Shown here in pieces: positions 1-15,672 of a stretch of DNA of 16,956 bases (its first letter is position 1; each line of letters starts with the position of its first letter). The stretch is from a virus (lineage: Duplodnaviria; Heunggongvirae; Uroviricota; Caudoviricetes), in the IMG/VR virus record IMGVR_UViG_2740892218_000013, positions 1-16,956 of that record; one strand, written 5' to 3'. A program made the translations under genes and the position numbers. Below the pieces are notes generated by a model. The model searched no databases and was not told the origin of the DNA. It was given only the letters and a program-made list of their open reading frames with translations.

Positions 1-252
1 TTGTTGGGCTTGTTTAATCCAGTAACTGCGGGGCTTTAAGGCGAGTTTTCTAATCTTAAGTTTATCTTTCTGTTTCTGCTCCTCTCGTCGTCGTTTCTTC
101 TCTGCTGCTTTTTCCGCTTTTTTTCGCTGTTTACTTTGTAGTTCGAGTGCTAACTGAGTTCCGTGTTCCGGGCAGCACCACCACTGATTTGAGAATGCCG
201 GGTGAAACCATTCCTTGCATATTTTGCATTTCCTTCGCGCTGGTTTAGCCAT
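1..252 (-). CDS. ninG: NinG (Rap) recombination protein, N-terminal 84 codons; 3' end lies beyond the window
   Basis: Minus-strand frame from ATG at 250-252 reads [41 protein letters not shown]..., matching the lambda NinG N-terminus as I recall it; open to position 1. Confidence 0.8.
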
Positions 253-316
253 CGTCTTCTTCCTCGTACATTGAGCTATTCGGATCGCTCATCAGTTCTG
301 CGCAGTTATGGTCTGC
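245..316 (-). pseudogene. ninF: ninF 3' fragment (C-terminal ~20 codons), separated from its 5' part by the HNH gene
   Basis: Minus-strand frame ends ...[19 protein letters not shown] then TAA at 245-247, matching the recalled lambda NinF C-terminus. The frame stays open upstream to an ATG at 413-415 (57 codons) but that upstream part has no NinF similarity and overlaps the HNH ORF. Confidence 0.5.
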
Positions 317-812
317 CATGGTTTTCATGAAAACCCAGTTCTTTTTCTGCCCTCTTCCTTTCTGCAATAGCGTCAATGATGCTAGCAAATATTCCAAGAT
401 ATTTGGTGCGCCCATCTACGCATATATTCGCAATCCACTTACATCTCTCTTTATTGAAATATACTCCAGTCACTCCTGACGAATTGGTTATTTTTCTCTT
501 TTGGTTCTGTGCATTCTGTTGGTGTGTAACCAACCGAAGATTAGATAGCCTATTATCTGACCTTACTCCATTTATATGATCAATTTTATACCCTAATGGA
601 ATCTCACCATTATTTATCATCCATATAACGTGGTGAGCATAAGTAATTACACCATCGATAGTTAACATCCTATAACCATCACTCCTAATGTAACCAGCAA
701 CACTGCCAACCTTAACATTATTAGAAGGAGACACTTTCCATCTAAGTACACCTAAAACATCATCATATGATAATTTATTTCTTAATTCGTCTATGTTGCT
801 TATATTTCTCAT
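306..812 (-). CDS. HNH-family homing endonuclease with AP2-like DNA-binding domain (168 aa)
   Basis: ORF track protein contains DHINGVRSDNRLSNLRLVTHQQN (HNH motif) and GVTGVYFNKERCKWIANICVDGRTKYLGIF (AP2-like). The 5' half is markedly AT-rich compared with flanking nin genes. GGTGGAA precedes the ATG. Confidence 0.8.
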   Translation of the reverse strand: MRNISNIDELRNKLSYDDVLGVLRWKVSPSNNVKVGSVAGYIRSDGYRMLTIDGVITYAHHVIWMINNGEIPLGYKIDHINGVRSDNRLSNLRLVTHQQNAQNQKRKITNSSGVTGVYFNKERCKWIANICVDGRTKYLGIFASIIDAIAERKRAEKELGFHENHGRP

Positions 813-834
813 TATGTTCCACCATATTTAAGCA

Positions 835-954
835 TTCATATATACAACGCTCACACACGTGAACTTCCAGCACATGCAGCTTCTGACCGCAGTTAGCGCA
901 CGTTAAAGCTCGCTCGACACTTCCTTGTTCGTAACTTCGATTTTGGTCAATCAC
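835..954 (-). pseudogene. ninF: ninF 5' fragment (N-terminal zinc-finger part), terminated prematurely just before the HNH gene
   Basis: Minus-strand frame from GTG at 952-954 (overlapping the ninE stop) reads ...SYEQGSVERALTCANCGQKLHVLEVHVCERCII then TGA at 835-837, matching the recalled lambda NinF N-terminal half. Confidence 0.5.
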
Positions 955-1133
955 CTTGTTTTCCTCGCACGTTCTCTAAGCCACCGGATATCCCACAGGT
1001 GAGCCGTGTAGTTGAAGGTTTTTACGTCAGATTCTTTTGGGATTGGCTTGCGTTTATTTCTGGAGCGTTTCGTTGGAAGGTATTTGCAGTTTTCGCAGAT
1101 GATGTCGGTGATACTTCGTCGCTGTCGTCTCAT
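951..1133 (-). CDS. ninE: NinE (60 aa)
   Basis: [23 protein letters not shown]... matches lambda NinE as recalled; start overlaps the ninB stop. Confidence 0.8.
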
Positions 1134-1540
1134 TCGTACCTCCTGTCGGTAAATCTGACACCCTGACCAATAGCCCAGGCTGTTGTGTACTCGATCAGAC
1201 TTGCCATACGCTTCACGCTCATCTGCGCGCTGCTTTCGCGAATGTTGACGTATTCGCCTTCAAGGCCGGGCAAAACATCAGCTTCCTGCTTTGTTGCCAC
1301 TGCATGACCGCTGATCAACAAAACCTTCCATTGTTCTGGTTTTAACCATTTATCGCGCCACTGAACTTGCCTAGCGATATCTGCGACCATCGCGTGAAAT
1401 TTTGCGTTCTGGTCAAGGTTGCGCTTGTAGTCAGTAATGCGGATGGTGACTGGCTTGTCTTTATCGAGTGGTGTTGCGAGGATGGCATTTATTGCAGCTT
1501 GCTGTTGTTGCTTAGTTCGGAGGAAGATTGTTTGCTTCAT
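1130..1540 (-). CDS. ninB: NinB recombination protein
   Basis: NinB-like sequence (…[27 protein letters not shown]…). I place the start at ATG 1538-1540 (MKQTIFL, GAGGT 4 nt upstream) rather than the track's TTG at 1558. Confidence 0.8.
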
Positions 1541-1547
1541 TGTCACC

Positions 1548-1754
1548 TCAACTAACAAAACGCCACGCCATTTTTGCTACAGCAACAGGCGCAACACCGA
1601 TAATCACCCACAGGAGAATGCTACCGAAAAGCACACCCACCAGGTCTTTACCTTCGCCTACCAACCGGACAAAACTGCTGGCAACAACAATGAACGTCGC
1701 CACCATCCACATAGCACCGAGAATCCTCAATGCAGAGAAAATTAACTCAGCCAC
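1548..1754 (-). CDS. Small hydrophobic (two-TM) membrane protein, 68 aa, GTG start
   Basis: Strong SD GGGGGAGGG 5-6 nt upstream of GTG; highly hydrophobic translation; sits between a terminator and ninB. Function unknown. Confidence 0.45.
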   Translation of the reverse strand: MAELIFSALRILGAMWMVATFIVVASSFVRLVGEGKDLVGVLFGSILLWVIIGVAPVAVAKMAWRFVS

Positions 1755-1770
1755 GATTCACCCTCCCCCA

Positions 1771-1801
1771 AATAAAAAGGCCTGCGATTACCAGCAGGCC
1801 T
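1771..1801 (-). terminator. Rho-independent terminator (tR2-like) in the nin region
   Basis: Stem AGGCCTGC (1778-1785) / GCAGGCCT (1794-1801) with 8-nt loop; on the minus strand followed by TTTTATTT. Confidence 0.5.
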
Positions 1802-1826
1802 GTTATTAGCTCAGTGATGTAGATGG

Positions 1827-2096
1827 TCATTGCTTCATATCCCCTTCCATTTCATCAATGTCAACGTCATCAGGAAGATGGGAACAATACGCTGCTATAC
1901 CATGATGATTTATCTCATACCCTTTGAACGTTACCATCTGGCGCGTAATCTCAACTTCGTTCAGGAATCCGCCATCGCATAACTGCCTGGCTATTTTCGA
2001 TTTGGTCTGGATTATTGGTAGTGCCTGTTCTTTCAAAGCGTATGATATTTGTGCATCCCATGCCTTTTCGAGAATGGCTAATTGTTTTTTATTCAT
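1827..2096 (-). CDS. Hypothetical protein, 89 aa, translationally coupled to the helicase gene
   Basis: ORF start overlaps the helicase stop by 4 bp; ren/ninA-equivalent position; no motif recognised. Confidence 0.5.
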
Positions 2097-3469
2097 ACGT
2101 CAGCCCCTTGTGCATATCGTCTGCCACGCGCAGCAGGCGCATTTGATGCTGTGCAAATCTGTCTGGCTTCATCCTGGTCACATGCAACAAAGTGTCCGTT
2201 GCAGAACCGCTGGTAAACCGTACCAAGCGAGCCAAAACGGTTTTTCGTCACAATGATTTCAGCAAATGGTGCGGCGCTACTGTTCTCGTCATATACCGCT
2301 TCCCGATAGAGCATGATGATTGAGTCTGCGTCCTGTTCAATGCTTCCTGAATCACGCAAATCTGCGTTTGTCGGGCGTTTGTTTGGTCGCTTCTCAACAT
2401 CGCGCGAAAGCTGACTCAGGGAGATAACCGGTGTTTTCAGGTCTTTCGCCATCGCCTTCAGGCTTCCGGAGATGTGAGCAATTGCGAGGTCGTTGCGGTC
2501 TGCTTTCGGCTTCTCAATCAGGCCAAGATAATCCGCCATGATGAGTGACAGGTTTGGATTTTCCTGTTTGTGTCGTTCTGCGATTGAGCGTATTTCTTCG
2601 ACCGATAACCGCGAGGCATCGACTACCCACACATCCAAATCTGCAAGCTGACTCATGCCGTTAGCAACACGCGCCCAGCCTTCGTCATCCATCGATGCAG
2701 GATTTCGCAGTACGCTAACCGACATCCTCCCGGCGTTGGCAATGCTTCGCTCTGCAATCTGCAATGCGCTCATTTCCATTGAGAAAATCAATACCCCGCG
2801 CCGGACGTCAGAACCAGGAATAACGCGGCTTGCAACGCCTTCGGCAATCTTCAGCGCCAGTTCGGTTTTCCCCATACCAGGACGAGCAGCGATTATCACA
2901 AGGTCTTCTGCGTTCATCCCTCCGGTGATGGCATCAAGTTCTTCGATTCCGGTCTTCAGGGTATCTGACTCTTCTCCGTTCCTCAGACGCCTGTCAAGCG
3001 TGTCAGTGTAGTCAGTGATGATTTCCCCTAACCGTACAGGTTTAACCTCGTCACGGGGCTTTCTGATGGCTGAGAGACGTTTTACAAGTTCATCCATCGC
3101 CTGACTCGATGCGTCGATGGTTCCGCTCTGAATTGGTTCACGCATTTCATCCATGATTTCCAGCACCAGACGGCGGTGATAGTTATCCGCGACCATTCCG
3201 GCATATCCCTTCAGGTTTGCGGCACTCGGGCAGTTTTTGCTGGTCATCAGGATTGACGTGAAATGCTCCTCTCCGCACTCCTCGGCAACCATCAGCGCGT
3301 CGATTAGGTTTCTGTTTCGCGCCTGCTTGCGGATAACCTCGAAGGCCTTCCGGTAGAGCGGAATTGAAAACGCTTCCGGCTCCAGCGTTGCAAGAACGTC
3401 ACTGGCGGTTGGAGTTAATCCACCAATCAGCAGGCCGCCGATAACGCTCGCTTCGATATCCTGTCTCAT
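2093..3469 (-). CDS. Replicative DNA helicase, DnaB family (P22 gene 12 type), 458 aa
   Basis: Walker [13 protein letters not shown] and DnaB-like C-terminal domain; occupies the lambda P position, so replication uses its own helicase rather than a P-type loader. ATGA overlap with the O gene. Confidence 0.9.
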
Positions 3470-4296
3470 GCAATCCCCCTGTCTGCAAACTTCCCTTCCC
3501 GTACTCCCGTTAACGAATCTTCCCTCAGCAGGTAATCAAAATCTGCCGTCCAGCCCGTGTCGTTGTCTCCGAAGTAAAACGGCTTGGCCTGATGCACAAA
3601 CGCCCTGACATACGCTCTGAAACCGTCCACGTTTGGCGTTTTCAATTGCGGAATGATTTTCTTCAGGCGGCGTTTGCGTTTCTCGTTGACCGCAACAGCA
3701 TGTGGAAGTCTGTCACCGACTTCGGTGTTGTAGGCGTTCAGGAAGGATTCGTAGTCGATTCGTTCTGCCTTGCGACGTTCAGGTTTAACCTGCCCATCGC
3801 CGCCCCCATTAGGGGGTAAGGGGGTATTTGTATTTATTGTCTTTTGTATATTGTCTTTTGTGTTTGACTGATTCGGTAAATTGCTTTTTACCGATTTGGT
3901 GAAGGTTTGTTTTACCGAATTGGTAAATGTTTTACCGAATCCGTTAACTTTCGTTTTCCACTCGGAAATGTTTGTATTCATACCAACTTGACGCCCCACC
4001 TGAATGAGAACTCCCATTCTGATAAGCTCGTTTTTGGCGGTAGAGCATTTGGTTGGTGCCATGCCAGTGAGTTCAGCGAACTGTTCGTTTCCGATCCAAT
4101 CTATTTTTTTGTTGTAACCGTATGTCTTGCGCCACACAGCCATAACAATCAGTAACTGATGTAGAGTAAGCCCGGAAAGCATGGCGGCTTCTAACAGTGT
4201 GTTTGCAGTCCGAGTGTAGCCATCTTCGAGTTCTGCCACGCGATGCTCCACGACCTCCAGTTGAGGCCTGTAATCAGCTAACTTAACGACGCCCAT
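3466..4296 (-). CDS. Replication initiator, lambda O-like, 276 aa
   Basis: N-terminal region resembles lambda O (DDGY.R....LLEA...; WRKTYGYNK); the gene contains the ori iteron array. Confidence 0.85.
3830..3950. repeat. Replication origin inside the O gene: about four ~20-bp iterons plus adjacent AT-rich tract
   Basis: Repeats ACCGATTTGGTGAA / ACCGAATTGGTAAA / ACCGAATCCGTTAA plus inverted copy ATTCGGTAAATTG at 3871-3950; ATTGTCTTTTGT occurs twice in the AT-rich tract 3830-3866. Order matches lambda ori relative to O transcription. Confidence 0.6.
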
Positions 4297-4444
4297 GTTT
4301 CACTCCTGCTTTGGCTAGTCTGTAAACACCAACAAGGCGCTCTGCGAACGCCCTGTTATTTGCTGCGGCTACCACTAATCCCTCAGGTGAATCAGGGTGT
4401 CGAATCTCTTCTTTTTCCTGGTATTTCTTACGACGTTTTGTCAT
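4283..4444 (-). CDS. Small basic protein, 53 aa, between cII and O
   Basis: Not in the ORF track (under 60 aa). ATG at 4442-4444 with AGGAG 5 nt upstream; translation [53 protein letters not shown]; 3' end overlaps the O start by 14 bp. Confidence 0.4.
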   Translation of the reverse strand: MTKRRKKYQEKEEIRHPDSPEGLVVAAANNRAFAERLVGVYRLAKAGVKHGRR

Positions 4445-4476
4445 AATTACTCCTGTGGATTGATCCAGTAATTACC

Positions 4477-4773
4477 TCAGAACTCCATCTGGATTTGTTC
4501 AGAACGCTCGGTTGCCGCCGGGCGTTTTTTATTGGTTAGTCCATCAAGCGCATACTTAAAAGCCCTGCTAATCGGACTGATGTCTGATGCCATTCCAAAA
4601 GCACACAGAACCGAAGCAATAAATCTCCAGTCCGTTCTGCTTATCTTCGATTCATGACAGCCAATCATCTTTGCCAGACCGCGCTGGGTAAGCGTTGACA
4701 GATTGATGAGTAAATCTGTTTCTGCGCGATCAACGTCGCGCTGTGATAGTTTGCTGTAACTTGTTTGTTCCAT
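4477..4773 (-). CDS. cII: Transcriptional activator CII
   Basis: C-terminus ...LTNKKRPAATERSEQIQMEF matches lambda CII; position between cro and O. Confidence 0.9.
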   Translation of the reverse strand: MEQTSYSKLSQRDVDRAETDLLINLSTLTQRGLAKMIGCHESKISRTDWRFIASVLCAFGMASDISPISRAFKYALDGLTNKKRPAATERSEQIQMEF

Positions 4774-4838
4774 TTCTTACTATTTCCATAGGTAAATAAT
4801 CACTAATACCCATCTTTCGATGAGTGCTTAATTAGTTA

Positions 4839-4873
4839 CCGCGTTGTCGGCGGTGCAGATTGATAAAGAGCGG
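4839..4873 (-). promoter_or_regulatory. nutR: boxA plus P22-type boxB hairpin
   Basis: Minus strand reads CGCTCTTTAT (boxA) then ACCGCCGACAACGCGGT (5-bp stem, GACAA-type loop), just downstream of cro. Confidence 0.6.
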
Positions 4874-4882
4874 ATCCGCTTA

Positions 4883-5098
4883 TTAAGCGGCTTTGTGTTC
4901 CGGCGGGAACACGTCATCAAGACTGACTTTTGCGCCTAACTTGTTTAGGCACGCAACAAGAGCACGGCATGTTTTAAGGTCTGGGAAGCGACGACCAGAT
5001 TCCCAATGTCCGATAGCTCCCTGTGTGCATCCAACTGCCTTAGCAAGTGTTGTTTGAGAGATATTCAGTGACTCTCGATATTTTCGTAGGTTGCTCAT
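4883..5098 (-). CDS. cro: Cro-type repressor, 71 aa (HTH)
   Basis: HTH ISQTTLAKAVGCTQGAIGHWESG; ATG at 5096-5098 preceded by GGAGGG. The track's TTG at 5125 lies inside the pR -10 hexamer and is rejected. Confidence 0.8.
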   Translation of the reverse strand: MSNLRKYRESLNISQTTLAKAVGCTQGAIGHWESGRRFPDLKTCRALVACLNKLGAKVSLDDVFPPEHKAA

Positions 5099-5208
5099 AT
5101 GCCCTCCATAGTAACCATGAAGCAATAATACGATATGTACTTTTGAAATGCAAATAAAAATACATCTTGTGCATGGATGGTTTTAGTACAGAGCGTAATA
5201 ATAAGGAT
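5099..5208. promoter_or_regulatory. oR region with divergent pR and pRM
   Basis: pR on the minus strand: -35 TTGCAT (5148-5153), 17-bp spacer, -10 TATTAT (5125-5130). Inverted-repeat operator candidates ATGTACTTT / AAAATACAT also occur in the oL region. Confidence 0.7.
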
Positions 5209-5868
5209 ATGAAAATGAAATGGTATGAACTGGCTAGATCCAGAATGAAAGAGCTCGGCATAACTCAAGAGAAGTTAGCTGAAGAGCTTGGTATGACGCA
5301 GGGTGGAATTGGTCACTGGTTGCGCGGATCTCGTCATCCATCTCTTGACGAGATTGGTGTGGTGTTTAAATACCTTGGTATTGATAACGTCTCATTCAAC
5401 CACGACGGTACATTTTCACCTGTTGGCGAATACTCATCTGCCCCCGTTAAAAAACAATATGAGTACCCTGTTTTTTCTCATGTTCAGGCCGGGATGTTCT
5501 CGCCTGAGCTTAGAACCTTTACCAAAGGTGATGCGGAGAGATGGGTAAGCACAACCAAAAAAGCCAGTGATTGTGCATTCTGGCTTGAAGTTGAAGGTAA
5601 TTCCATGACCGCACCAACAGGCTACAAGCCAAGCTTTCCTGACGGGATGTTAATTCTGGTTGACCCTGAGCAGGCTGTCGAGCCAGGTGATTTCTGCATA
5701 GCCAGACTTGGGGGTGATGAGTTTACCTTCAAGAAACTGATCAGGGATAGCGGTCAGGTGTTCCTACAACCACTAAACCCGCAATATCCAATGATCCCAT
5801 GCAATGATAGCTGTTCCGTAGTAGGGAAAGTTATCGCCAGCCAGTGGCCTGAAGAGACATTTAGTTAA
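5209..5868 (+). CDS. cI: CI repressor: heterologous N-terminal HTH domain fused to a lambda-type C-terminal autocleavage domain
   Basis: C-terminal ~130 aa nearly identical to lambda CI as recalled (VQAGMF cleavage site, GNSM serine, FKKL lysine); N-terminal domain differs. Start could be ATG 5209 or 5215 (AAGGA upstream). Confidence 0.9.
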
Positions 5869-5899
5869 CAGCCTCACCACTCTAAAACACACAACAATA

Positions 5900-5929
5900 A
5901 CCCGACCTTAGCGTCGGGTTTTCTTTTTC
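5900..5929 (+). terminator. Rho-independent terminator downstream of cI
   Basis: Stem CCCGAC (5901-5906) / GTCGGG (5913-5918) followed by TTTTCTTTTT. Confidence 0.6.
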
Positions 5930-5993
5930 CAAAATATAAATCAATAAAATACAAAGTGTTATAAAAAACTAACCGCATTTAGAACATTTTGTA

Positions 5994-6022
5994 TTGACTC
6001 AATAAAGTACACATCGTACTAT
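5994..6022 (+). promoter_or_regulatory. pL promoter with overlapping oL operators
   Basis: -35 TTGACT (5994-5999), exact 17-bp spacer, -10 TACTAT (6017-6022); flanked by TACAAAGTGTT / AACATTTTGTA inverted repeats. Confidence 0.65.
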
Positions 6023-6067
6023 TTAGCCATCAGCAGGAAGCTGGAAGCCAAACGGAACAGATTGGCA

Positions 6068-6102
6068 GGCTCTTTAACTTCGATGGGGCGCTGACAAAGC
6101 GC
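6068..6102 (+). promoter_or_regulatory. nutL: boxA-like plus P22-type boxB hairpin
   Basis: GGCTCTTTAA (6068-6077) then GCGCTGACAAAGCGC (6088-6102), the P22 boxB-left sequence as I recall it, upstream of N. Confidence 0.7.
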
Positions 6103-6221
6103 AAATAGATACCAAACGAGATGGGTTTGGCGGTGATGTGAATTGCAGCTGCAACGACAGCAACCAGAAGATCAGCACCTGGCGCATCACCACCAAAGCC
6201 ATTTCACATGAGGAAAACATC

Positions 6222-6530
6222 ATGACGGTAATCGTGTACGGAAAATCAACATTTGCAGGAAATGCCAAAACTCGCCGTCATGAGCGGCGCAGAAAGCTGG
6301 CTATCGAGCGTGATTCCATCTGCAACATCATCGATTCGATCTTCGGCATAGACAGTGAGGAAGCTGTTCAGGAAGAACCGAGAAAGCGTTTAAGTCTTTC
6401 TGAAAAAGCAGCATCACTCGGCAATATTCGTAACCAAAATACCGACGAATGCAGTGGAAGTATTTGCCTGCCAAACGTAGCCATTTACGCGGCAGGCTAC
6501 CGGAAATCAAAACAACTGACAGCGAGGTAA
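6222..6530 (+). CDS. N: Antitermination protein N, P22 gene 24 type, ~102 aa
   Basis: Arginine-rich motif GNAKTRRHERRRKLAIERD near the N-terminus (the P22 N boxB-binding peptide as recalled). ATG at 6222 with GAGGA upstream, chosen over the track's start at 6138. Confidence 0.85.
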   Translation: MTVIVYGKSTFAGNAKTRRHERRRKLAIERDSICNIIDSIFGIDSEEAVQEEPRKRLSLSEKAASLGNIRNQNTDECSGSICLPNVAIYAAGYRKSKQLTAR

Positions 6531-6532
6531 TT

Positions 6533-6985
6533 ATGGATTTAAGTAAATTAGAAAGCTCTTTAGAAGCATCAGTAAAAAATTTTATATCAGTAATTGATGA
6601 AAAAACTGAAGATATTAAGAAAGCAAATATTGTCGAACTTGTAAAAACAAGAGCCAGTACATTTGATCATCTTCCTGATGATGTCCGGTCAGCGGCAATT
6701 CACGTATATGTAACGGCACTAAGCAATATTGAACCCCCAATTGATGAAGAATCAAGAGATATTCAGAAAAAACGGTTCGAGATGTTAGCCAGCAACATTA
6801 TCGCTGGTTTCACACGGCTCTTAACAAAAAAGCCTGCCAGTGAGGCTGTTCGCCAGCAGGCTCAGGTAATGATTAATCAGGCAGAAACTATTTCACGTGA
6901 GCGAAAAGCATTTGATAAATCGGTTTCTGAACTTCCAACACCTCAACCGCAGCCGCTGAACCTTCCTTCTCAACAAACTGAATAA
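6533..6985 (+). CDS. Hypothetical protein, 150 aa, AT-rich, translationally coupled to N
   Basis: ATG at 6533 three nt after the N stop, with GAGGT SD; first ~200 bp strongly AT-rich; no motif recognised; 3' end overlaps a convergent ORF. Confidence 0.5.
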   Translation: MDLSKLESSLEASVKNFISVIDEKTEDIKKANIVELVKTRASTFDHLPDDVRSAAIHVYVTALSNIEPPIDEESRDIQKKRFEMLASNIIAGFTRLLTKKPASEAVRQQAQVMINQAETISRERKAFDKSVSELPTPQPQPLNLPSQQTE

Positions 6986-7142
6986 CTTCATCAAGATTCT
7001 TTTTTGCATGTGATGATTGCTCAGGTGGCATAGCAGAAACAATCGAAATGATTGCTTGCTGGAGCGCGAGGTTTTCAGTGCTCAGTTTTGAAACTCTGTT
7101 GTTTAAATCCTCAATGATTTTAACAAGAGATACATCTGACAT
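6888..7142 (-). CDS. Hypothetical protein, 84 aa, antisense to the pL operon
   Basis: ATG at 7140-7142 with AAGGAG 5 nt upstream; predicted helical (LNNRVSKLSTENLALQQAI); overlaps the 3' end of the 6533-6985 ORF by 98 bp. Confidence 0.4.
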   Translation of the reverse strand: MSDVSLVKIIEDLNNRVSKLSTENLALQQAIISIVSAMPPEQSSHAKKNLDEVIQFVEKEGSAAAVEVLEVQKPIYQMLFAHVK

Positions 7143-7153
7143 GTGAACTCCTT

Positions 7154-7203
7154 CTTTTGACTGTGGAAACAACAGTCTACCCATTTCCTTTGACTGTGGA
7201 AAG
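7154..7203. repeat. Two direct copies of a 16-bp motif, 34 bp apart, in the intergenic region
   Basis: CTTTTGACTGTGGAAA at 7154-7169 and CCTTTGACTGTGGAAA at 7188-7203 (15 of 16 identical), between the minus-strand ORF start and the 7282 gene. Confidence 0.6.
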
Positions 7204-7281
7204 TGAAGGAACCACCGAGCCTGATGTGGTTAAAAGACAGGCACAATCTTTACAGCCGCAATCCACTATTTAAGGTGATAT

Positions 7282-7731
7282 ATGGAAGAACAAGCAAACA
7301 AGATTCTCGTAGAACTACTGCAAAAAGCCAGTAATGGAATAGACGCGGCTGTTTCATTTAGCCAGGCACAGATTCCTGATGTTGTTCATCAGTTGCTGCT
7401 ATGGAATATGGTTGACAGTCTGATTAAAACATTAATAGCCATTCTAACAATCCCACTGGTTTTCTGGTTTATGAAGAAGCAGTGCCAAAGAGTTGAGATA
7501 GGTAAAATCGGTAATGAAGGATATTCATGGGAGAAGGGAAATCCCAAATACAGGCCGACAATGGTTTGGGATAGCAAAGGTGATATTAATCTTCTTATCA
7601 TGCCATTGGTTGGAGTTTTGACTCTGTGGGGGATTTTTATTATTGGTGCAGTAACCAATATGACTTGGTTAAAAATTTGGCTGGCTCCAAAGCTTTACCT
7701 TATCGAATATGCAGCATCATTGGTTAAGTAA
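7282..7731 (+). CDS. Multi-pass inner-membrane protein, 149 aa; candidate superinfection-exclusion protein
   Basis: AAGGTGA SD; two or three hydrophobic helices; followed by a terminator; lies where lambda has sieB. No sequence identity recognised. Confidence 0.55.
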   Translation: MEEQANKILVELLQKASNGIDAAVSFSQAQIPDVVHQLLLWNMVDSLIKTLIAILTIPLVFWFMKKQCQRVEIGKIGNEGYSWEKGNPKYRPTMVWDSKGDINLLIMPLVGVLTLWGIFIIGAVTNMTWLKIWLAPKLYLIEYAASLVK

Positions 7732-7736
7732 TTTCA

Positions 7737-7764
7737 GGCCGCATAGTCGGCCTTTATTTTTGGC
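7737..7764 (+). terminator. Rho-independent terminator
   Basis: Stem AGGCCG (7737-7742) / CGGCCT (7749-7754), loop CATAGT, then TTATTTTTGG. Confidence 0.55.
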
Positions 7765-7880
7765 ATAAACAACAGAATAAATACTGCACTGTGTATTCAT
7801 TCCGACGAGTGAATACACGGAGCAATGTCGCTCGTAACTAAACAGGAGCCGACTTGTTCTGATTATTGGAAATCTTCTTT

Positions 7881-7907
7881 GCCCTCCAGTGTGAGGGCGA
7901 TTTTTTT
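7881..7907 (+). terminator. Rho-independent terminator immediately upstream of the 7920 gene's SD
   Basis: Stem GCCCTC (7881-7886) / GAGGGC (7893-7898), loop CAGTGT, then GATTTTTTT; GGAGGA SD follows directly. Confidence 0.55.
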
Positions 7908-7919
7908 GATGGAGGATAT

Positions 7920-8888
7920 ATGAGTGAAGTAACAGACTTAGTTGTTATTGAAAAAGCAAATGCAATGACTGTATTTCAGTCTGCAGACCAGATTGAAGAA
8001 ATCCTTCAAAAGGTTGAACGTGAAGTTATGTCCTTTGTGCCTGATATCACAACGGCAAAGGGCAGAAAGGAGATCGCTTCTCTGGCGTATAAAGTTGCGC
8101 AGACGAAAACATATCTCGATGGTCTTGGCAAAGACCTTGTTGCTGAACTGAAGGAAATTCCAAAGCTAATTGATGCCAACCGCAAGACAGTGCGCGATCG
8201 CCTTGATGAACTGAAAGCCAAGGCGCGCCAGCCTCTTACTGATTATGAGGAAGAACAGGCGCGGATTAAAGCCGAAGAAGAAGCTAAGGCAGCAGCTGAA
8301 GCTCTCGCAAAGCAAATTGAGTCTGACCATGAAATAGCTATTTTGATGGATCGCGAATTTGACCGCCAAAGAGAAGAGGCAAGACTCAAAGCGGAGCAGG
8401 AAAAGCGAGAGCATGAAGAACGATTAAAAAGAGAAGCTGAAGAGAAAGCCAGAGCAGAAGCCGAAGCAAAGGCAAAAGCCGAAATTGAAGCAGCAGCAAG
8501 GCGAGAAGCAGAAGCTAAGGCCGCAGCGGAACGTGCAGAGCGTGAACGCATTGAAGCCGAGCAACGAGCACAGCGCGAAGCAAAAGAGGCAGCAGAACGA
8601 GCTGAAAGAGAAAAGCAGGCAGCAATTGAAGCAGAACGCAGAAAAGCACAGGAGGAGGCTGAACGAATCCGTCGCGAGGCTGAAGCAAAAGAGCAAGCCA
8701 GAATAGCAGAAGAAAAAAGAATCAAGGACGAAGAAGATCGTAGAGCAAAGGATAAAGCTCACCGGAAAGAAGTAAATAACAAAATACTTGCTGACCTTAT
8801 CAAGGTTGGCGCATCAGAAGATGTTGCTAAAAATATCATAACAGCCATCGTAAAAGGCGAAGTATTCGCAACAAAAATAACCTACTAA
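7920..8888 (+). CDS. Coiled-coil protein, 322 aa, with long E/A/K/R-rich central repeat region
   Basis: ATG at 7920 after GGAGGA. Globular N-terminal ~110 aa, ~170 aa of EAKA/REAE-type repeats, short conserved C-terminal tail. Function unknown; sits just upstream of cIII. Confidence 0.65.
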   Translation: MSEVTDLVVIEKANAMTVFQSADQIEEILQKVEREVMSFVPDITTAKGRKEIASLAYKVAQTKTYLDGLGKDLVAELKEIPKLIDANRKTVRDRLDELKAKARQPLTDYEEEQARIKAEEEAKAAAEALAKQIESDHEIAILMDREFDRQREEARLKAEQEKREHEERLKREAEEKARAEAEAKAKAEIEAAARREAEAKAAAERAERERIEAEQRAQREAKEAAERAEREKQAAIEAERRKAQEEAERIRREAEAKEQARIAEEKRIKDEEDRRAKDKAHRKEVNNKILADLIKVGASEDVAKNIITAIVKGEVFATKITY

Positions 8889-8912
8889 TAAAACCAACAT
8901 AAGGAACCACCC

Positions 8913-9059
8913 ATGATTTACGCAATCGCGGGAGGCGCTCGCATGGGTGCCTTCCAATTAAATGAATCTTTACTTGAACGAATCACCCGTAAATTACGTG
9001 ACGGATGGAAACGACTCATCGACGTACTTAATCAGCCAGGATTTCCAAAAAATGGATAA
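8913..9059 (+). CDS. cIII: CIII (protects CII from FtsH), 48 aa
   Basis: Not in the ORF track. AAGGAA SD 6 nt upstream; translation MIYAIAGGARMGAFQLNESLLERITRKLRDGWKRLIDVLNQPGFPKNG matches the lambda CIII core (ESLLERITRKLRDGWKRLIDILNQPG) as recalled. Confidence 0.85.
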   Translation: MIYAIAGGARMGAFQLNESLLERITRKLRDGWKRLIDVLNQPGFPKNG

Positions 9060-9165
9060 AACACTTATGGCTATCCAGACTAAATTCACTATCGCCACTT
9101 TTATTGGCGATGAAAAGATGTTTCGTGAGGCCGTCGAGGCCTACAGGAAATGGAGGTCAAAATGA
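9052..9165 (+). CDS. kil: Kil-like host-killing protein, 37 aa
   Basis: Internal Met of the track ORF 8962-9165; MDKTLMAIQTKFTIATFIGDEKMFREAVEAYRKWRSK resembles the lambda Kil N-terminus as recalled; start overlaps the cIII stop. Confidence 0.6.
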   Translation: MDKTLMAIQTKFTIATFIGDEKMFREAVEAYRKWRSK

Positions 9166-9350
9166 TTCCGGTAGAACTGGCGAAAACTCCAGAGTTAAGT
9201 CGATTAAAAAGAGAATATCACATTGCTGAGGCTCGTTACTGGCGTAAAGCGGGAGATAAATCAAAGAAACAACTTTGTTTATGGCAGGCACAAAGAGAGC
9301 GCATGAATGAGCGAGAGTTTCTTTCCTCCCCATCCGAATTACCATTCTGA
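9162..9350 (+). CDS. Hypothetical protein, 62 aa
   Basis: ATG at 9162 with GGAGG 5 nt upstream; start overlaps the kil stop; in the lambda gam position but not Gam-like. Confidence 0.45.
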   Translation: MIPVELAKTPELSRLKREYHIAEARYWRKAGDKSKKQLCLWQAQRERMNEREFLSSPSELPF

Positions 9351-9358
9351 GGCAAATT

Positions 9359-10039
9359 ATGGGAACTGCAACATTAATACTCGGTGAGTCTGGCACCGGA
9401 AAATCAACCAGCATGAGAAATATCAATCCAGAGGAAGCAATACTTATAAAACCAATAGGCAAGCCGCTACCATTTAAATCAAAAGACTGGCTGGCATGGG
9501 ATGCCAGAGCAAAAAAAGGAACCGTAGTTACCACTGACAAATGGGATGTAATAGTTGCCGTAATTAAGCGTGCTCACGAATACGGGAAAAGAATCGTTAT
9601 TGTTGATGACTTCCAGTATGTGATGAGCAATGAGTTTATGCGCCGCTCAGAAGAAAAATCGTTTGATAAATTCACTGAGATAGGCCGTCACGCATGGGAG
9701 GTCATTAAGGCTGCACAAGATGCACCTGATGACCTGAGAGTCTATTTTCTTGCGCACACCGAAGAAACCCCTATGGGGCGCGTGAAAATGAAAACTATCG
9801 GCAAAATGCTGGACGAGAAGATCACTGTTGAAGGCATGTTTACTATAGTTCTTCGCACCCTTACCCGTGATGACCAGTTCTTTTTCACCACGAAAAACAA
9901 CGGTGCAGACACTGTTAAATCCCCAATGGGAATGTTTGATTCCAATGAGATTGATAACGATCTCTCTTTCGTCGATGCCACTGTTTGTGATTACTACGGC
10001 ATCAATAATGTTCATCAAATTAAGGAAAACGCCGCATGA
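9359..10039 (+). CDS. Sak4-type RecA-like ATPase (phage single-strand annealing recombinase family), 226 aa
   Basis: Walker A GESGTGKST near the N-terminus, Walker B IVIVDD, ~225 aa core-only size; lies where lambda has bet/exo. Confidence 0.7.
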   Translation: MGTATLILGESGTGKSTSMRNINPEEAILIKPIGKPLPFKSKDWLAWDARAKKGTVVTTDKWDVIVAVIKRAHEYGKRIVIVDDFQYVMSNEFMRRSEEKSFDKFTEIGRHAWEVIKAAQDAPDDLRVYFLAHTEETPMGRVKMKTIGKMLDEKITVEGMFTIVLRTLTRDDQFFFTTKNNGADTVKSPMGMFDSNEIDNDLSFVDATVCDYYGINNVHQIKENAA

Positions 10040-10623
10040 GCAACGTAATTTTTACTTATAACGAAGAAGCAGCACTGACCGCAGGGCAAGGTGGTTTTAT
10101 TAACGAAACTGGCGCTCATATCATTACCATTACTGAAGCAGAACTAAAGCAATCAGAAAAAGGCGCAAAATTTATTGAGTTTTCTGGCGAATCCGACGAC
10201 GGACGTAAAATACAATATCTTAGCGTTTGTGTTCAGAAAAATGACGGAACGGAAAACAAATTTGGCGCAAATGTCGTTCACGCCATGATGGGGTGTGCCG
10301 GTATTGGACAATTAACGCAACATATGGTTTCCGCCAGTAAATTTGTTGCACCTGAATTTCATGGAAAGAAAATCGGGTTAGTGCTCCAGAAAGTATTAAC
10401 CACAAACAAAAAGACTGGCGCAGACAGCTACCAGATGGAAATACGCATCCCGTTTATTGCACAAACAGGTCAAACCCTTAAAGAAAAGGCGGAAGGCAAG
10501 CAACCAGAAACTATCGCCAACATGGTTGCCAGCCTCAAAGATAAAGACAATCGCTCTAAAAACGTAAGCCAGAATCATGCAGATGATTATGGTTACAGCC
10601 AGAACGATTACCCTCCTTTCTGA
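10036..10623 (+). CDS. Putative ssDNA-binding protein partner of Sak4, 195 aa, with SSB-like acidic tail ending in Phe
   Basis: Translationally coupled to the Sak4-like gene (ATGA overlap). C-terminus ...HADDYGYSQNDYPPF resembles the SSB and T7 gp2.5 acidic tail with terminal aromatic residue. OB fold not verifiable by eye. Confidence 0.4.
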   Translation: MSNVIFTYNEEAALTAGQGGFINETGAHIITITEAELKQSEKGAKFIEFSGESDDGRKIQYLSVCVQKNDGTENKFGANVVHAMMGCAGIGQLTQHMVSASKFVAPEFHGKKIGLVLQKVLTTNKKTGADSYQMEIRIPFIAQTGQTLKEKAEGKQPETIANMVASLKDKDNRSKNVSQNHADDYGYSQNDYPPF

Positions 10624-10646
10624 TTACTGAAAATAAGGCTCCCATT

Positions 10647-10943
10647 ATGCCAGCGCCTCTGTATGGTGCGGATGACCCGCGCAACTGCTCCGGTAGCTCC
10701 AAGGCGGAGGTGCTGGAAAATATCAAAAACAATTTCGACGCGTTTCTTGCTCTGACGCCAGAAACAAAAGCAGAACGGATGTACCGACGCGATATACAAC
10801 TCGCGCTAAAACAGGAGAAGGACCGAACAAACGAAACAGCAATGAGACCGTTGCGAAAAGCGACAATAGACAAATTCCCTGAATATATCGACCCGCGCCT
10901 GCGTAATTACCGCTCACGCTATGGCGCTATCAGTAATGACTGA
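10647..10943 (+). CDS. Hypothetical protein, 98 aa
   Basis: ORF in operon orientation with an upstream purine-rich tract; no motif recognised. Confidence 0.45.
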
Positions 10944-10953
10944 GGAATTTACC

Positions 10954-11118
10954 ATGAGAGGACTTGCATACAATCCCGGCATTCTTCCGGCAGAAATGAT
11001 TATTCGCCAACGCGTAAAGCCAATGCCATCGAGAGAGGAATTGCTTAAGAGAAATTCTTTTCCATCAGTGAATCAAAACAAATATCTGAATGCGATGTGG
11101 CGGAGTGGGAAGAAATGA
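10954..11118 (+). CDS. Hypothetical small protein, 54 aa
   Basis: Internal ATG of track ORF 10921-11118, preceded by GAGGAA at 6-nt spacing. Confidence 0.3.
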
Positions 11119-11786
11119 AACAAATGTCACTAATTGAGATGGATGGTTTTCTGAAAGGTAAATGCATCCCAAGTGATTTAAAGGTTAACGAAACAAACGC
11201 TGAATATCTTGTCCGTAAGTTCGGTGAACTTGAATCAAAACTAGAAACGGCGTTGCGGGAGTGTCGTTCTGCTGGAATCACGATTGATAACCTTGAGGCC
11301 AAGTGCGCGGCGCTGGCAGCGGAGAATGCAAGACTGAAGGCCGGGGCTATGTATTTCTCATATGGCTCTGAATTTAGTTTCGAGTGTCACAAAACTGCTG
11401 AGGAGGCTATCGCTGCTGCTGAGGCTGCAATTGACGACTATAGAGGCGATGCTTGCGATGGATGGAGCGAAGAGGTCGAAAGCATTTGCTGGGGGGTAAT
11501 TATTCAGCAGGCAACCAAGGTCGGTGAACGCAAGAAGAGGAAATGCGACAGAGTATCACCATGGATTGAAAGAGTTTGTGATTATGAGCTTCGACCTAAT
11601 GTCGAAACCCCAGCCACCGATGCTTTCCTGGCTGAAGTACGAGCGCAGGGCGTGGAGATGTTTGCACAGAAATGTAACTCAAAATCCGAACAGTCATTTG
11701 CATCTGATATACGCGATAACTGGAAACTACTCGGTGAACATGCCACTGACTTTGCCGCAGAGCTTCGCAAAGGAGGCAACCAGTGA
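11097..11786 (+). CDS. Coiled-coil protein, possibly Ead/Ea22-like; start uncertain (11097 or 11115)
   Basis: Central coiled-coil ([39 protein letters not shown]); position between the recombination module and xis. Confidence 0.5.
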
Positions 11787-12052
11787 GTGAGTCAAAATGC
11801 CAAATTAATGGCAACAAGATAGAACCGTGCGCGGCTTTGGCAAAATCTCTCGAATATGGAAATCCAACATTCAAGAGTAAAGGCATATTTATCCCGGAAC
11901 GTGTGAACATAAACACCGGCGAGTCAGGCATAGATATTGCTCAAATTCACTCTGGGCAATATATCGGTCGTGGTGTTGCAATGTGTTTTTGCCCGTTCTG
12001 TGGTGAAAGTCTGAAAACGTGGGAAGCGGAGGCAACCAGTGAGCGAGATTGA
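11783..12052 (+). CDS. Hypothetical protein, 89 aa, GTG start
   Basis: Starts with GGAGGCAACCA-GTG-AGT-GAG overlapping the upstream stop; contains a CxxC pair (CPFCGE). Confidence 0.45.
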   Translation: MSESKCQINGNKIEPCAALAKSLEYGNPTFKSKGIFIPERVNINTGESGIDIAQIHSGQYIGRGVAMCFCPFCGESLKTWEAEATSERD

Positions 12053-12620
12053 CTATCAGGCACTGCGTGCTAAGGCAGAAAAAGCAACGTGTGGTGTGTG
12101 GTCGCTCGAATATGGAGAGGAGAGATTTGATGCTGGTGATGCGCTAATTCATCGTGAAGTTGTTGGATATCTTCCCATTTGCAGAATTGAAGGAGCGCAT
12201 CCTGAAAGCGGTTTCGATGAAGATTTCCAAATGGAACAGCAGGCCAATGCTGAATTCATCGCCGCAGCCAATCCCGCTACCGTCTTGGCGCTGCTGGATG
12301 AACGGGAAAGAAACCAGCAATACATAAAACGCCGTGACCAGGAGAACGAGGATATTGCGCTAACGGTAGGGAAGCTGCGCGTTGAGCTTGAAGCAGCAAA
12401 ATCAAAACTCAACGAGCAGCGTGAATATTACGAGGGAGTAATCGCGGATGGAAGTAAGCGCATAGCAGAACTGGAGGAGCGGGAAATACTGCTCCCGGAA
12501 CGTAGCAGTATGCTTCATCGAACAGATTTTCACGAGGATTACCAAACGGTAATGGCATACAAAGTTTCTGAGGTCATCGCTGCAATCCGCGCCGCTGGCA
12601 TTCGCATCAAAGGAGAGTGA
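12039..12620 (+). CDS. Ead/Ea22-like family protein, 193 aa, GTG start
   Basis: Motif EFIAAANPATVLALLDE followed by coiled-coil, typical of Ea22-like prophage proteins as recalled; same SD-GTG-MSE start cassette as the previous gene. Confidence 0.55.
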   Translation: MSEIDYQALRAKAEKATCGVWSLEYGEERFDAGDALIHREVVGYLPICRIEGAHPESGFDEDFQMEQQANAEFIAAANPATVLALLDERERNQQYIKRRDQENEDIALTVGKLRVELEAAKSKLNEQREYYEGVIADGSKRIAELEEREILLPERSSMLHRTDFHEDYQTVMAYKVSEVIAAIRAAGIRIKGE

Positions 12621-12621
12621 G

Positions 12622-12819
12622 ATGGACAAAAACACACCTGCTTACTGGAGTCTGTCACTTGATACCGAATGTCCAAAATGTGGTCACAATTTCGATCTGC
12701 TTTGTGATCCAGATTTCTGGGAGTTTTCTGGAGCTAAACAGGCATGTGAAGAAATAAAAGGTTACGAAACATGCTGTCCAGAATGTAACCATGAATTTAA
12801 AACAGATTTCGTGTATTGA
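12622..12819 (+). CDS. Small zinc-ribbon protein, 65 aa
   Basis: Two Cys pairs (CPKCGH ... CCPECNH); tightly packed after the upstream gene. Confidence 0.5.
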   Translation: MDKNTPAYWSLSLDTECPKCGHNFDLLCDPDFWEFSGAKQACEEIKGYETCCPECNHEFKTDFVY

Positions 12820-12829
12820 GGCATAACAA

Positions 12830-13282
12830 ATGACCACTATTACCAGAGAACAAGCTCTGAAAATTATTGAGGCAGCCGATGAGGTTATTAGTGCGCTGGC
12901 CGGAACTAATGAGGATGTTCACCCTGGTAGCGATAACATGCTACGCCTGTGGGATGACCTGAATGACCGTTACGCGCCGCCGGAAGTTGTGCGTGAGCTG
13001 GCACGGATTGCACTGGCATCACTGGAAGCAAAACCAATAGGTGCTTTCCACATTGCAGAACAGCAGGTCGATGGCACAAGTGACTACATCAAGGATGGGG
13101 AGTGGCCTATTGATAATGGGACAATTGAAGTATACGCCGCCCCTCCAGCGCCAGTAGTACCGGAAGAAAAACCAATGCCTAACCCTCTTAGCATGTACAC
13201 AGTTGATGCTGTTGCAGCTATTGCAGAGGTGAGAGGCTGGAACGCCTGCCGTGCAGCCATGCTTAAGGGAGATAAATCATGA
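12830..13282 (+). CDS. Hypothetical protein, 150 aa
   Basis: ORF in operon orientation; stop overlaps the next start (ATGA). Confidence 0.5.
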   Translation: MTTITREQALKIIEAADEVISALAGTNEDVHPGSDNMLRLWDDLNDRYAPPEVVRELARIALASLEAKPIGAFHIAEQQVDGTSDYIKDGEWPIDNGTIEVYAAPPAPVVPEEKPMPNPLSMYTVDAVAAIAEVRGWNACRAAMLKGDKS

Positions 13283-13629
13283 TTAATCGAACCAAACTGG
13301 AGCACATCCTCGAGTATGCCAGGCAGCAGAGGCGCTTTGGCCAGCTTTGTAAAATTCTGCCAGGAGATATGGTTGAAATCGTGGAGATTGCCATGCGTAA
13401 GACTGGCAACTCTCCGGTAAGTCCGGGTGGTTGGATAAGCTGTAGTGAGCGAATGCCCGCTCAAGATGATTGGATTTTAATTTATTCAAAGCACGGTGAG
13501 TATATGGCAGGACAGGTACAAGAGGAATACGTGGAGTTGAGCGACGGCACTTTATCGTGGTTAGGGAACGCCTTGTACTGGATGCTGCTACCAGAACCGC
13601 CGCAGGGAGTGAATGATGAATTGGCCTGA
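13279..13629 (+). CDS. DUF551-like prophage protein, 116 aa
   Basis: Motif WISCSERMP...DDWILIY resembles the DUF551 signature (W.S..ERLP) as recalled. Confidence 0.5.
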   Translation: MINRTKLEHILEYARQQRRFGQLCKILPGDMVEIVEIAMRKTGNSPVSPGGWISCSERMPAQDDWILIYSKHGEYMAGQVQEEYVELSDGTLSWLGNALYWMLLPEPPQGVNDELA

Positions 13630-13699
13630 AGCATTCACCGCTGTAGGAGTTGCAATCGCGGTGGCATTTATTCTGTATTCGCTTTTCCGCTGGGGATAA
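13616..13699 (+). CDS. Possible small single-TM peptide, 27 aa
   Basis: Not in the ORF track. ATG 13616 (alternative 13613) after GGGAG; translation MNWPEAFTAVGVAIAVAFILYSLFRWG; overlaps the upstream gene's end and stops 4 nt before the next start. Confidence 0.3.
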   Translation: MNWPEAFTAVGVAIAVAFILYSLFRWG

Positions 13700-13703
13700 A
13701 GGA

Positions 13704-13946
13704 ATGTTCGCTCTGATTCAACGTGGTCAGATATACACCGATAGCGCCGGCTACCCGATAAAAATTCTTCGCTGCATAAACAACACTGTGTTGTACAGAA
13801 GAATGGATGGGCGAACACAGTCGGTAAAAATAAACGATTTTAATGAACTGTTTGAACGGATCGATCACCAGGAATACCGACAAATTCTGGCTGAAACAGA
13901 GCAGGAGAACCATCTGAAAAAATTACGCGCCATGCAAAGGAGATAA
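13704..13946 (+). CDS. Hypothetical protein, 80 aa
   Basis: Internal ATG of track ORF 13650-13946 (MFALIQRGQIY...), placed directly after the small peptide stop. Confidence 0.45.
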   Translation: MFALIQRGQIYTDSAGYPIKILRCINNTVLYRRMDGRTQSVKINDFNELFERIDHQEYRQILAETEQENHLKKLRAMQRR

Positions 13947-14007
13947 ACCGGTAAAGGTGTTCGCGATAAAGGTGAATATCGGCAATGAATAACAATCCTC
14001 GCACTCG

Positions 14008-14032
14008 CGGGGATTTATTTTATCTGAACTCG
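14008..14032 (+). terminator. Possible Rho-independent terminator
   Basis: Stem ACTCGC (14008-14013) / GCGAGT (14018-14023), loop TACG, then TTTGTTTTAT. Confidence 0.4.
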
Positions 14033-14064
14033 CTACGGCGAGTTTTGTTTTATGGAGATGATAA

Positions 14065-14232
14065 ATGCACTTCCGAGTCACAGGTGAATGGAATGGAGAA
14101 CCATTCAACAGAGTTATCGAAGCGGAGAACATCAACGACTGCTACGACCACTGGATGATATGGGCACAGATAGCACATGCAGACGTAACCAATATTCGAA
14201 TTGAAGAACTGAAAGAACACCAAGCCGCCTGA
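14065..14232 (+). CDS. Hypothetical small protein, 55 aa
   Basis: Not in the ORF track. ATG at 14065 with GGAGATGA upstream; translation MHFRVTGEWNGEPFNRVIEAENINDCYDHWMIWAQIAHADVTNIRIEELKEHQAA; stop lies in the loop of a terminator hairpin. Confidence 0.45.
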   Translation: MHFRVTGEWNGEPFNRVIEAENINDCYDHWMIWAQIAHADVTNIRIEELKEHQAA

Positions 14233-14247
14233 TGGCGGTTTTTTCTT
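14223..14247 (+). terminator. Rho-independent terminator upstream of xis
   Basis: Stem CCGCC (14225-14229) / GGCGG (14234-14238), loop TGAT, then TTTTTTCTT. Confidence 0.55.
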
Positions 14248-14271
14248 GCGTGTAATTGCGGAGACTTTGCG

Positions 14272-14490
14272 ATGTACTTGACACTTCAGGAGTGGAACGC
14301 ACGCCAGCGACGCCCAAGAAGCCTTGAAACAGTTCGTCGATGGGTTCGCGAATGCAGGATATTCCCACCTCCGGTTAAGGATGGAAGAGAGTATCTGTTC
14401 CACGAATCAGCGGTAAAGGTTGACTTAAATCGACCAGTAACAGGTAGCCTTTTGAAGAGGATCAGAAATGGGAAGAAGGCGAAGTCATGA
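14272..14490 (+). CDS. xis: Excisionase Xis, lambda type, 72 aa
   Basis: MYLTLQEWNARQRRPRSLETVRRWVRECRIFPPPVKDGREYLFHESAVKVDLNRPVTG.LLKRIRNGKKAKS is essentially lambda Xis as recalled; overlaps the int start by 23 bp as in lambda. Confidence 0.9.
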   Translation: MYLTLQEWNARQRRPRSLETVRRWVRECRIFPPPVKDGREYLFHESAVKVDLNRPVTGSLLKRIRNGKKAKS

Positions 14491-15538: not shown

Positions 15539-15626
15539 TGATTTTATTTTGACTGATAGTGACCTGTTCGTTGCAACAAATTGATAAGTAATGCTTTTTT
15601 ATAAGGCCAACTTAGTATAAAAAAGC
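15539..15626. other. attL junction: P' arm with arm-type Int sites plus 15-bp core
   Basis: Core TTAGTATAAAAAAGC at 15612-15626 is the reverse complement of the lambda core GCTTTTTTATACTAA; arm-type site ATAGTGACCT at 15556-15565; flanking GCAGGCTTCA matches the bacterial attB arm. Confidence 0.85.
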
Positions 15627-15672
15627 AGGCTTCAACGGATTCATTTTTCCATTTCATAGCCCGGAGCAACCT

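Follow-up and report, generated by a model that had tools for sequence, protein, structure and literature searches.

The DNA analyzed here, referred to below as the window, is the whole stretch of 16,956 nucleotides (nt) given by positions 1 to 16,956 of the IMG/VR virus record IMGVR_UViG_2740892218_000013, which is assigned to Caudoviricetes. According to the open reading frame (ORF) list and domain scans it is the left arm of a lambdoid prophage, in which the gene order runs from the replication genes to the attachment site. Our subject is the immunity region at 4839-6530, where cro, the operators and promoters oR/pR, the repressor gene cI, a terminator, oL/pL, nutL and the antiterminator gene N follow one another, with nutR and cII on the far side of cro. 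Based on sequence comparisons, this is very probably an intact immC-equivalent immunity region of a lambdoid prophage, composed as a mosaic of known modules.

The gene cI (5209-5868, plus strand) encodes a protein of two parts, here numbered from the ATG at 5209: an N-terminal helix-turn-helix (HTH) domain of the Pfam family HTH_3 (residues 11-58, E 8e-11) and a lambda-type C-terminal domain of the family Peptidase_S24 (residues 87-209, E 9e-29). In tblastn residues 85-218 show 97.8% identity to lambda CI, and the best solved structures are lambda repressor entries (PDB 3bdn, E 1e-95). At the nucleotide level positions 5458-5862 are 95% identical to lambda cI, and upstream of 5458 there is no nucleotide similarity to lambda. 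For residues 1-84 the comparison with lambda gave a single 29-residue match of 41% identity, and the N-terminal domain of HK97 CI has the same weak 29-residue match to the CI of the window. An earlier note on this DNA had described CI as a lambda-type C-terminal domain on a different HTH domain, and this description holds. The cleavage and catalytic residues of lambda CI (A111-G112, S149 and K192) are kept as Ala94-Gly95, Ser132 and Lys175. The sequence features of LexA/lambda-CI-type repressors (HTH domain, S24 domain, Ala-Gly site and Ser/Lys dyad) are thus found, which supports the prediction that CI is an autocleaving, RecA-inducible repressor.

The Cro protein (71 amino acids (aa), gene at 4883-5098, minus strand) is also a member of HTH_3 (E 4e-12). 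It shares 35% identity with the N-terminal domain of CI from the same phage and has no significant similarity to lambda Cro, as expected from the note, in which Cro was called non-lambda. Its best solved structure is 28tn chain A, an 82-aa 'lambda repressor-like protein' (E 4.5e-17), and this match is far stronger than those to the 434 or P22 proteins. PDB searches with the CI N-terminal domain and Cro found the 434 repressor and P22 c2 as weak matches (E 0.009-0.35), with E 0.27-0.44 given for the CI N-terminal domain. By tblastn, neither the CI N-terminal domain nor Cro has a match at E 1e-3 or better in the P22 immC region, and CI and Cro have none in the HK022 region. Among the candidate immunity types, 434 and P22 are argued against by the weak PDB matches of the CI N-terminal domain and Cro; the exclusion of 434 is only indirect, via the structure search.

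Close relatives of the repressor are found among the Stx phages and their kin. When the N-terminal 90 residues of CI were compared with 50,697 phage records by tblastn, phi458 was 100% identical, and identities of 95.6-97.8% were obtained for VT2-Sakai, Stx2 phage II, AP005153, 1717, 2851, Nil2, the PA-series Stx phages, ev017/ev207 and PhiR63_2. Below these come matches in Salmonella phages, at 56%. The CI N-terminal domain encoded by the prophage of Escherichia coli VR50 is also 100% identical. Cro is 100% identical in phi458, PhiR57_1, the Stx1 phage AP005153 and the VR50 prophage. Both CI domains, Cro and the six operator positions are shared with the group comprising VT2-Sakai, Stx2-II, 1717, 2851, Nil2, AP005153, phi458, ev017 and PhiR57_1. 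The chimeric CI occurs in more than 60 phage records, and the form with the lambda C-terminus has been named variant 'cI2c' (Smith et al., 2012; PMC3430580). Judged by these homologies, the immunity type is that of the VT2-Sakai/Stx2-II/1717/phi458 group ('cI2c') and was already known. The distinct immunity put forward in the note holds in a limited sense: it is non-lambda by CI, Cro and operators, non-P22 and non-HK022 by CI and Cro, and non-HK97 by the CI N-terminal domain, but it is not new.

Fagerlund et al. (2022; PMC8951638) assign lambda CI itself to their Clade I, which also contains Stx-phage CIs with 61% identity to lambda CI. The CI of the Stx2 phage BAA2326 of O104:H4 is a further one with an overall identity of about 61% to lambda CI. 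In BAA2326 three OR sites have been mapped experimentally, and the cargo downstream of cI is a restriction-modification system, not rex (Chakraborty et al., 2018; PMC5977221). The OR1-OR3 sequences (ATAACTGTGCGTAATG and two others) differ from the operators of the window. A scan of species representatives with CI gave as best locus an E. coli-labelled one, with 100% identity in CI and 97.3% at the nucleotide level. The scan also touched assemblies of taxa such as Shewanella, Kitasatospora, Capnocytophaga, Paenibacillus and Bradyrhizobium, in which a cI 70% identical over residues 12-218 is present, the same identity and span as for lambda cI. Several of these lambda-like copies are on contigs of ~48.4 kb with ~1x coverage, and the occurrence in unrelated taxa looks like contamination of public assemblies with lambda DNA.

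Six operators of 17 bp are predicted. The AP005153 record lists three putative operators in oR and three in oL, and each of the six counterparts in the window has 1-2 substitutions. Those in oR are oR1 (TAATACGATATGTACTT, 5126-5142; two mismatches to the AP005153 putative operator and none to ARTAC-N5-GTAYT), oR2 (AAATACATCTTGTGCAT, 5158-5174; synteny with AP005153 and a five-phage alignment) and oR3 (TAGTACAGAGCGTAATA, 5184-5200; the same synteny and one mismatch to the consensus). In oL they are oL3 (AAATACAAAGTGTTATA, 5947-5963) and oL2 (TAGAACATTTTGTATTG, 5980-5996), both placed by synteny with AP005153 and the five-phage alignment, and oL1 (AAGTACACATCGTACTA, 6005-6021; synteny and no mismatches to the consensus). 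The consensus in the window is nARTAC-N5-GTAYTn, and the predicted sites are conserved blocks in the alignment. With at most one mismatch allowed, 0.96 matches to the consensus would be expected in the window; four are found, each of them within oR or oL. The consensus scan for promoters placed pR (TTTGCA-18-TATTAT) at 5125-5154 on the minus strand, with oR1 overlapping the -10 hexamer and the spacer, and pL (TTGACT-17-TACTAT) at 5994-6022 on the plus strand, overlapped by oL1 and oL2. The centre of oR2 lies 43 bp upstream of the ATG at 5209, beside a poor -35 sequence. Relative to pRM this is presumably the position of OR2 in lambda, and by analogy the placement suggests positive autoregulation of cI.

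The lambda operator consensus (TATCACCGC..GTGATA) had been named beforehand as the sequence whose presence would speak against a separate immunity; it has no match in the whole window at up to three mismatches. This bears on the alternative that the likeness of CI to the lambda repressor extends to operator specificity, which would make the lysogen immune to lambda. The C-terminal domain of CI is indeed 98% identical to that of lambda, and in a study of the six VT2-Sakai operators lambda CI was found to bind these in vitro, at 4-6 µM compared with 0.2-3 µM for its own sites (Sedhom and Solomon, 2023; PMC10742460). Against this stand the 29-residue, 41% match as the sole likeness of the CI N-terminal domain to lambda, the absence of lambda-consensus operators from the window at that mismatch limit and a Cro that is unrelated to lambda Cro. 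Lambda immunity is almost certainly not the immunity of this prophage; imm-lambda was rejected, the CI N-terminal domain, Cro and operators all being non-lambda.

Only 126 bp separate the stop codon of cI (5868) from pL, and one terminator lies inside this interval. It was found by the terminator scan at 5899-5930 on the plus strand and consists of a hairpin (5899-5920; -12.4 kcal/mol, z -4.6) followed by a T-run. Because there are only 126 bp, rexAB cannot fit, and cI is followed directly by a terminator and pL, as the note had stated. Positions 5891-5926 are 89% identical to lambda DNA at the rexB end or just beyond it (tImm), and the homology to lambda skips from the cI 3' end straight to the last rexB nucleotides and tImm. 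The tImm-like hairpin is kept in lambda, phi458 and PhiR57_1, where it closes differing cargo genes, and the window and VR50 copies show one compensatory change in the stem, from G-C to A-T. By this homology the cI-to-tImm interval is a cargo slot, filled with rexAB in lambda, a single 348-aa ORF in phi458 and a pair of ORFs in PhiR57_1; AP005153 has about 1.5 kb of additional DNA, and in the window and in VR50 the slot is empty.

Beyond pL the affinity changes to P22. For the nut sites, the annotated nutL and nutR features were extracted from P22 (NC_002371) and set beside the window. The boxB of nutL (GCGCTGACAAAGCGC, 6088-6102, plus strand) and that of nutR (ACCGCCGACAACGCGGT, 4838-4854, minus strand) are letter for letter those of P22, which bears out the P22-type boxB sequences of the note; the elements of the region lie within one base of the coordinates that it gave for the region. 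The nutL boxB folds into a 5-bp stem with a GACAA loop, and the nutR boxB also folds as a hairpin. Neither boxA has more than one base changed relative to the P22 boxA. That of nutL (GCTCTTTAAC, 6069-6078, plus strand) is a mosaic junction, and that of nutR (CGCTCTTTATCA, 4861-4872, minus strand) corresponds to CGCTCTTTACCA at the same position in P22. The boxA lies 9-10 nt upstream of boxB, and at nutR 6 nt upstream.

The N gene (6222-6530, plus strand) encodes a member of the Pfam family N_peptide (E 6e-39), and its P22 membership was tested against the P22 genome. In the full-length alignment with P22 gp24, 69 of 100 aligned residues are identical (69%). Residues 1-42 are near-identical, and within them the P22-type arginine-rich motif GNAKTRRHERRRKLAIER is identical in the two proteins, so that the note was also correct in this respect. 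Likeness to lambda N is confined to a 10-residue R-rich patch. N is itself a mosaic: a P22 gp24-like start (residues 1-42) is followed by a divergent middle part and by 22 final residues with 91% identity to HK97 N. A PDB sequence search with N gave no match, although the P22 N peptide chain may fall below the 20-residue limit of that search. The arginine-rich motif together with boxA-preceded boxB hairpins in both the pL and pR transcripts makes up a P22-type N/nut system. Exact identities of 15 and 17 nt to P22, like the 95% nucleotide identity to lambda, are not due to chance.

The cII gene (4477-4773, minus strand; Pfam Phage_CII, E 8e-35) was the one gene for which the note proved incorrect. 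It had been called lambda-type, but the protein is 44-48% identical to lambda CII as against 85.7% to HK022 CII and 84.7% to HK97 CII, and by this comparison CII is of the HK022/HK97 type while still a member of Phage_CII. The 3' end of cII and the oop region (4437-4539) share 95% nucleotide identity with lambda. A putative pRE-like CII site, TTGC-N6-TTGT, was found by pattern match at 4751-4764 on the plus strand, i.e., at nt 10-23 of cII. The TTGC-N6-TTGC repeat of lambda lies at the matching position inside its cII, and the assignment is positional only. An Rfam scan of the whole window gave no family at the gathering score, and neither the nut sites nor the oop region was covered by any match.

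The places where the modules meet are as follows. The oL/pL DNA is homologous to the Stx-phage group up to the boxA of nutL, and the homology to AP005153 and PhiR57_1 ends just past GGCTCTTTAA, where the P22-type boxB and N start; those two phages have HK97-type boxB and N beyond boxA instead. The lambda-like part of cI starts at the hinge (nt 5458). Exchange of lambdoid modules has thus taken place in short conserved sequences, with junctions at boxA, the CI hinge and the tImm terminator.

E. coli VR50 carries the entire cII-to-N block (4435-6530) in collinear form, with 97.9% identity over 2,097 nt, and in E. coli strain W megablast aligned window positions 4435-6423, from cII to about two thirds of N, at 97.6%. 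A junction probe of 701 nt, spanning the cI 3' end, the terminator, oL/pL, nutL and the N 5' end, was matched contiguously in 48 of the 5,426 complete genomes of E. coli, the highest identity being 99.3%. In the E. coli genomes with the block the post-N genes and the replication module vary, and among the genomes listed only PEC41 shares the two post-N ORFs of the window. None of the 50,697 deposited phage genomes has at least 80% of the cII-to-N block contiguous in megablast. This last result is what could be expected if the chimeric CI and the P22-type N were a new, genome-specific recombinant, i.e., an immunity and antitermination combination not seen before. Such an origin is nevertheless extremely unlikely in view of the junction and block counts in E. 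coli just given, of the publication of the CI chimera in 2012 and its presence in the many phage records mentioned above, and of the P22-type N and nutL, which are common in E. coli phages, including Lambda_2E9-like and several Stx phages (93-96% nucleotide identity).

As to the sources of the modules, the repressor, Cro and operators are of the VT2-Sakai/Stx2-II/phi458 type, and the CI C-terminal domain, terminator, oop, cIII/kil and int/xis are lambda-like. The N arginine-rich motif and boxB are P22-type, CII is HK022/HK97-type and replication is of the P22 gene 18/12 type. Binding, cooperativity, inducibility and antitermination we infer by homology, and the region could work as follows. 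In the lysogen, CI dimers would occupy the 17-bp pseudo-palindromes oR1/oR2 and oL1/oL2 and shut off pR and pL. CI at oR2, beside the weak -35 of pRM, would probably activate cI transcription, and oR3, which overlaps pRM, would serve negative autoregulation. The cI transcript would end at the tImm-like terminator, 31 nt past the stop codon. Upon DNA damage RecA* would stimulate self-cleavage of CI at Ala94-Gly95 by means of the Ser132/Lys175 dyad. pL and pR would then fire, and the N arginine-rich motif would bind the GACAA-loop boxB of nutL and nutR; N, boxA and the Nus factors would together render RNA polymerase resistant to terminators. Cro, a likely paralogue of the CI N-terminal domain, may bind the same operators. 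CII acting at TTGC-N6-TTGT in its own 5' end would lead to repressor establishment, with oop and CIII presumably modulating CII.

Several points weigh against an intact region working in this way. At two mismatches the operator consensus is seen 21 times against 16 expected window-wide and is thus not enriched; therefore the outer, weaker operators rest on synteny and conservation. The centre-to-centre spacing in oR is 32 and 26 bp, which differs from the spacing in lambda, and lambda-style cooperativity can therefore not be assumed. The promoter scan gave no match for pRM, which is placed by analogy only. The start of cI is ambiguous between ATG 5173 (the choice of PGAP in relatives), 5209 and 5215. 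Finally, the window holds the left arm only, so the whole prophage could be defective. This limited coverage leaves room for the view that the region has decayed, as part of a cryptic prophage, and no longer controls a viable phage, for which VT2-Sakai offers a precedent: its cI is reported to carry a truncating single-nucleotide polymorphism giving a premature stop (Smith et al., 2012; PMC3430580). In the window, however, full-length ORFs with intact motifs are found for cII, cro, cI, N, cIII, kil, xis, int and the replication genes, and the promoters, operators, nut sites and terminators are likewise all present. We consider decay very unlikely and retain the intact mosaic region.

The analysis fixes the immunity type of the prophage: it should be homoimmune with phages of the VT2-Sakai/Stx2-II/phi458 type and heteroimmune with lambda, P22 and HK022. 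The region is one more clean case of lambdoid module exchange, and it illustrates that the cI-to-tImm cargo slot can be empty. It also shows how PGAP-style labels such as 'LexA family protein' and 'hypothetical protein' mask a fully interpretable switch. Beyond annotation the result matters little, as the mosaic is of an ordinary, already described kind, and the immunity region itself offers nothing new.

The remainder of the window conforms to a lambdoid left arm. The replication genes, on the minus strand, code for a DnaB-type helicase (2093-3469), which shares 415 of 458 residues with P22 gp12, and for an O-like initiator (3466-4296), which shares 206 of 259 with P22 gp18. Lambda-like cIII and kil lie at about 8913-9165, after several small ORFs downstream of N. 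At the other end are xis (14272-14490) and int (14468-15538), both on the plus strand, whose products are identical to those of lambda at 71 of 72 (99%) and 346 of 356 (97%) residues, respectively; here the lambda-type Int and Xis of the note were confirmed. Nucleotides 13989-15626 are 97.4% identical to lambda DNA, the identity stopping at the att core, and the prophage is therefore placed, by homology, at the lambda attachment site next to ybhC, which starts at 15673 and flanks the prophage end at about 15626. Int, Xis and the att core adjacent to ybhC together constitute a lambda-type site-specific recombination module. The immI genes (mnt/arc/ant) are not visible within the window.

Compared with lambda (NC_001416), the window thus shares the CI C-terminal domain (98% aa and 95% nt identity), the tImm-like terminator, oop, cIII and kil, as well as int, xis and attP (97% nt identity) and the insertion beside ybhC. 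Unlike in lambda are the CI N-terminal domain, the Cro fold, the operators, N, both boxB sequences and CII (44%); O/P is replaced by P22-type 18/12, rexAB and sieB are absent, and Red is replaced. In place of the Red genes there are a Sak4-like ATPase (9359-10039), an SSB-like protein (10036-10623) and a homologue of the anti-RecBCD protein Abc2 (10647-10943). With P22 (NC_002371) the window has in common both boxB (identical) and nearly the boxA sequences, N residues 1-42, the gp18 and gp12 homologues and the abc2 homologue; N is only 69% identical overall, and int/xis and the attachment site are lambda-type in the window. The replication genes of the Stx-phage group are of the lambda O/P type or other, and in this they also differ from the P22 18/12-type genes of the window.

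Two further ORFs of the pL operon were noted. That at 7282-7731 (149 aa) belongs to phrog_3054 and was without a PADLOC match. The other, at 7866-8888, is 340 aa long as listed (322 aa from an internal ATG at 7920), has an E/A/K-rich centre, belongs to phrog_1376/21365 and likewise gave no match in PADLOC. The label 'cell envelope biogenesis protein TolA' stands under some E. coli matches and may belong to ORF 7866-8888.

Directly after N, at 6533-7200, in the slot taken by sieB in lambda and P22, two convergent and overlapping ORFs are found. The first (6533-6985, plus strand, 150 aa) has a GAGG Shine-Dalgarno sequence right after the N stop codon. The second (6888-7142, minus strand, 84 aa) has the Shine-Dalgarno sequence AAGGAG, with two TCCACAGTCAAA direct repeats upstream. 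The pair gave no match in Pfam, PHROG or PADLOC and no tblastn match in the 50,697 phage genomes. The relatives of the pair are confined to a small family from Escherichia, Shigella and Salmonella; the 150-aa protein accounts for 16 homologue clusters, all 'hypothetical', with E. albertii represented besides E. coli. On the far side, positions 7209-7293 match the DNA just upstream of sieB, with 96% identity in lambda and 92% in P22. That the pair represents a new prophage exclusion or defence cassette in place of SieB is a doubtful suggestion with a slim chance of being right.

The flanking ybhC (window positions 15640-16956) is at most 94.2% identical to any ybhC of 5,417 complete E. coli genomes, and the best matches all fall within the 90-95% band. 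The host is probably a lineage of Escherichia outside E. coli sensu stricto.

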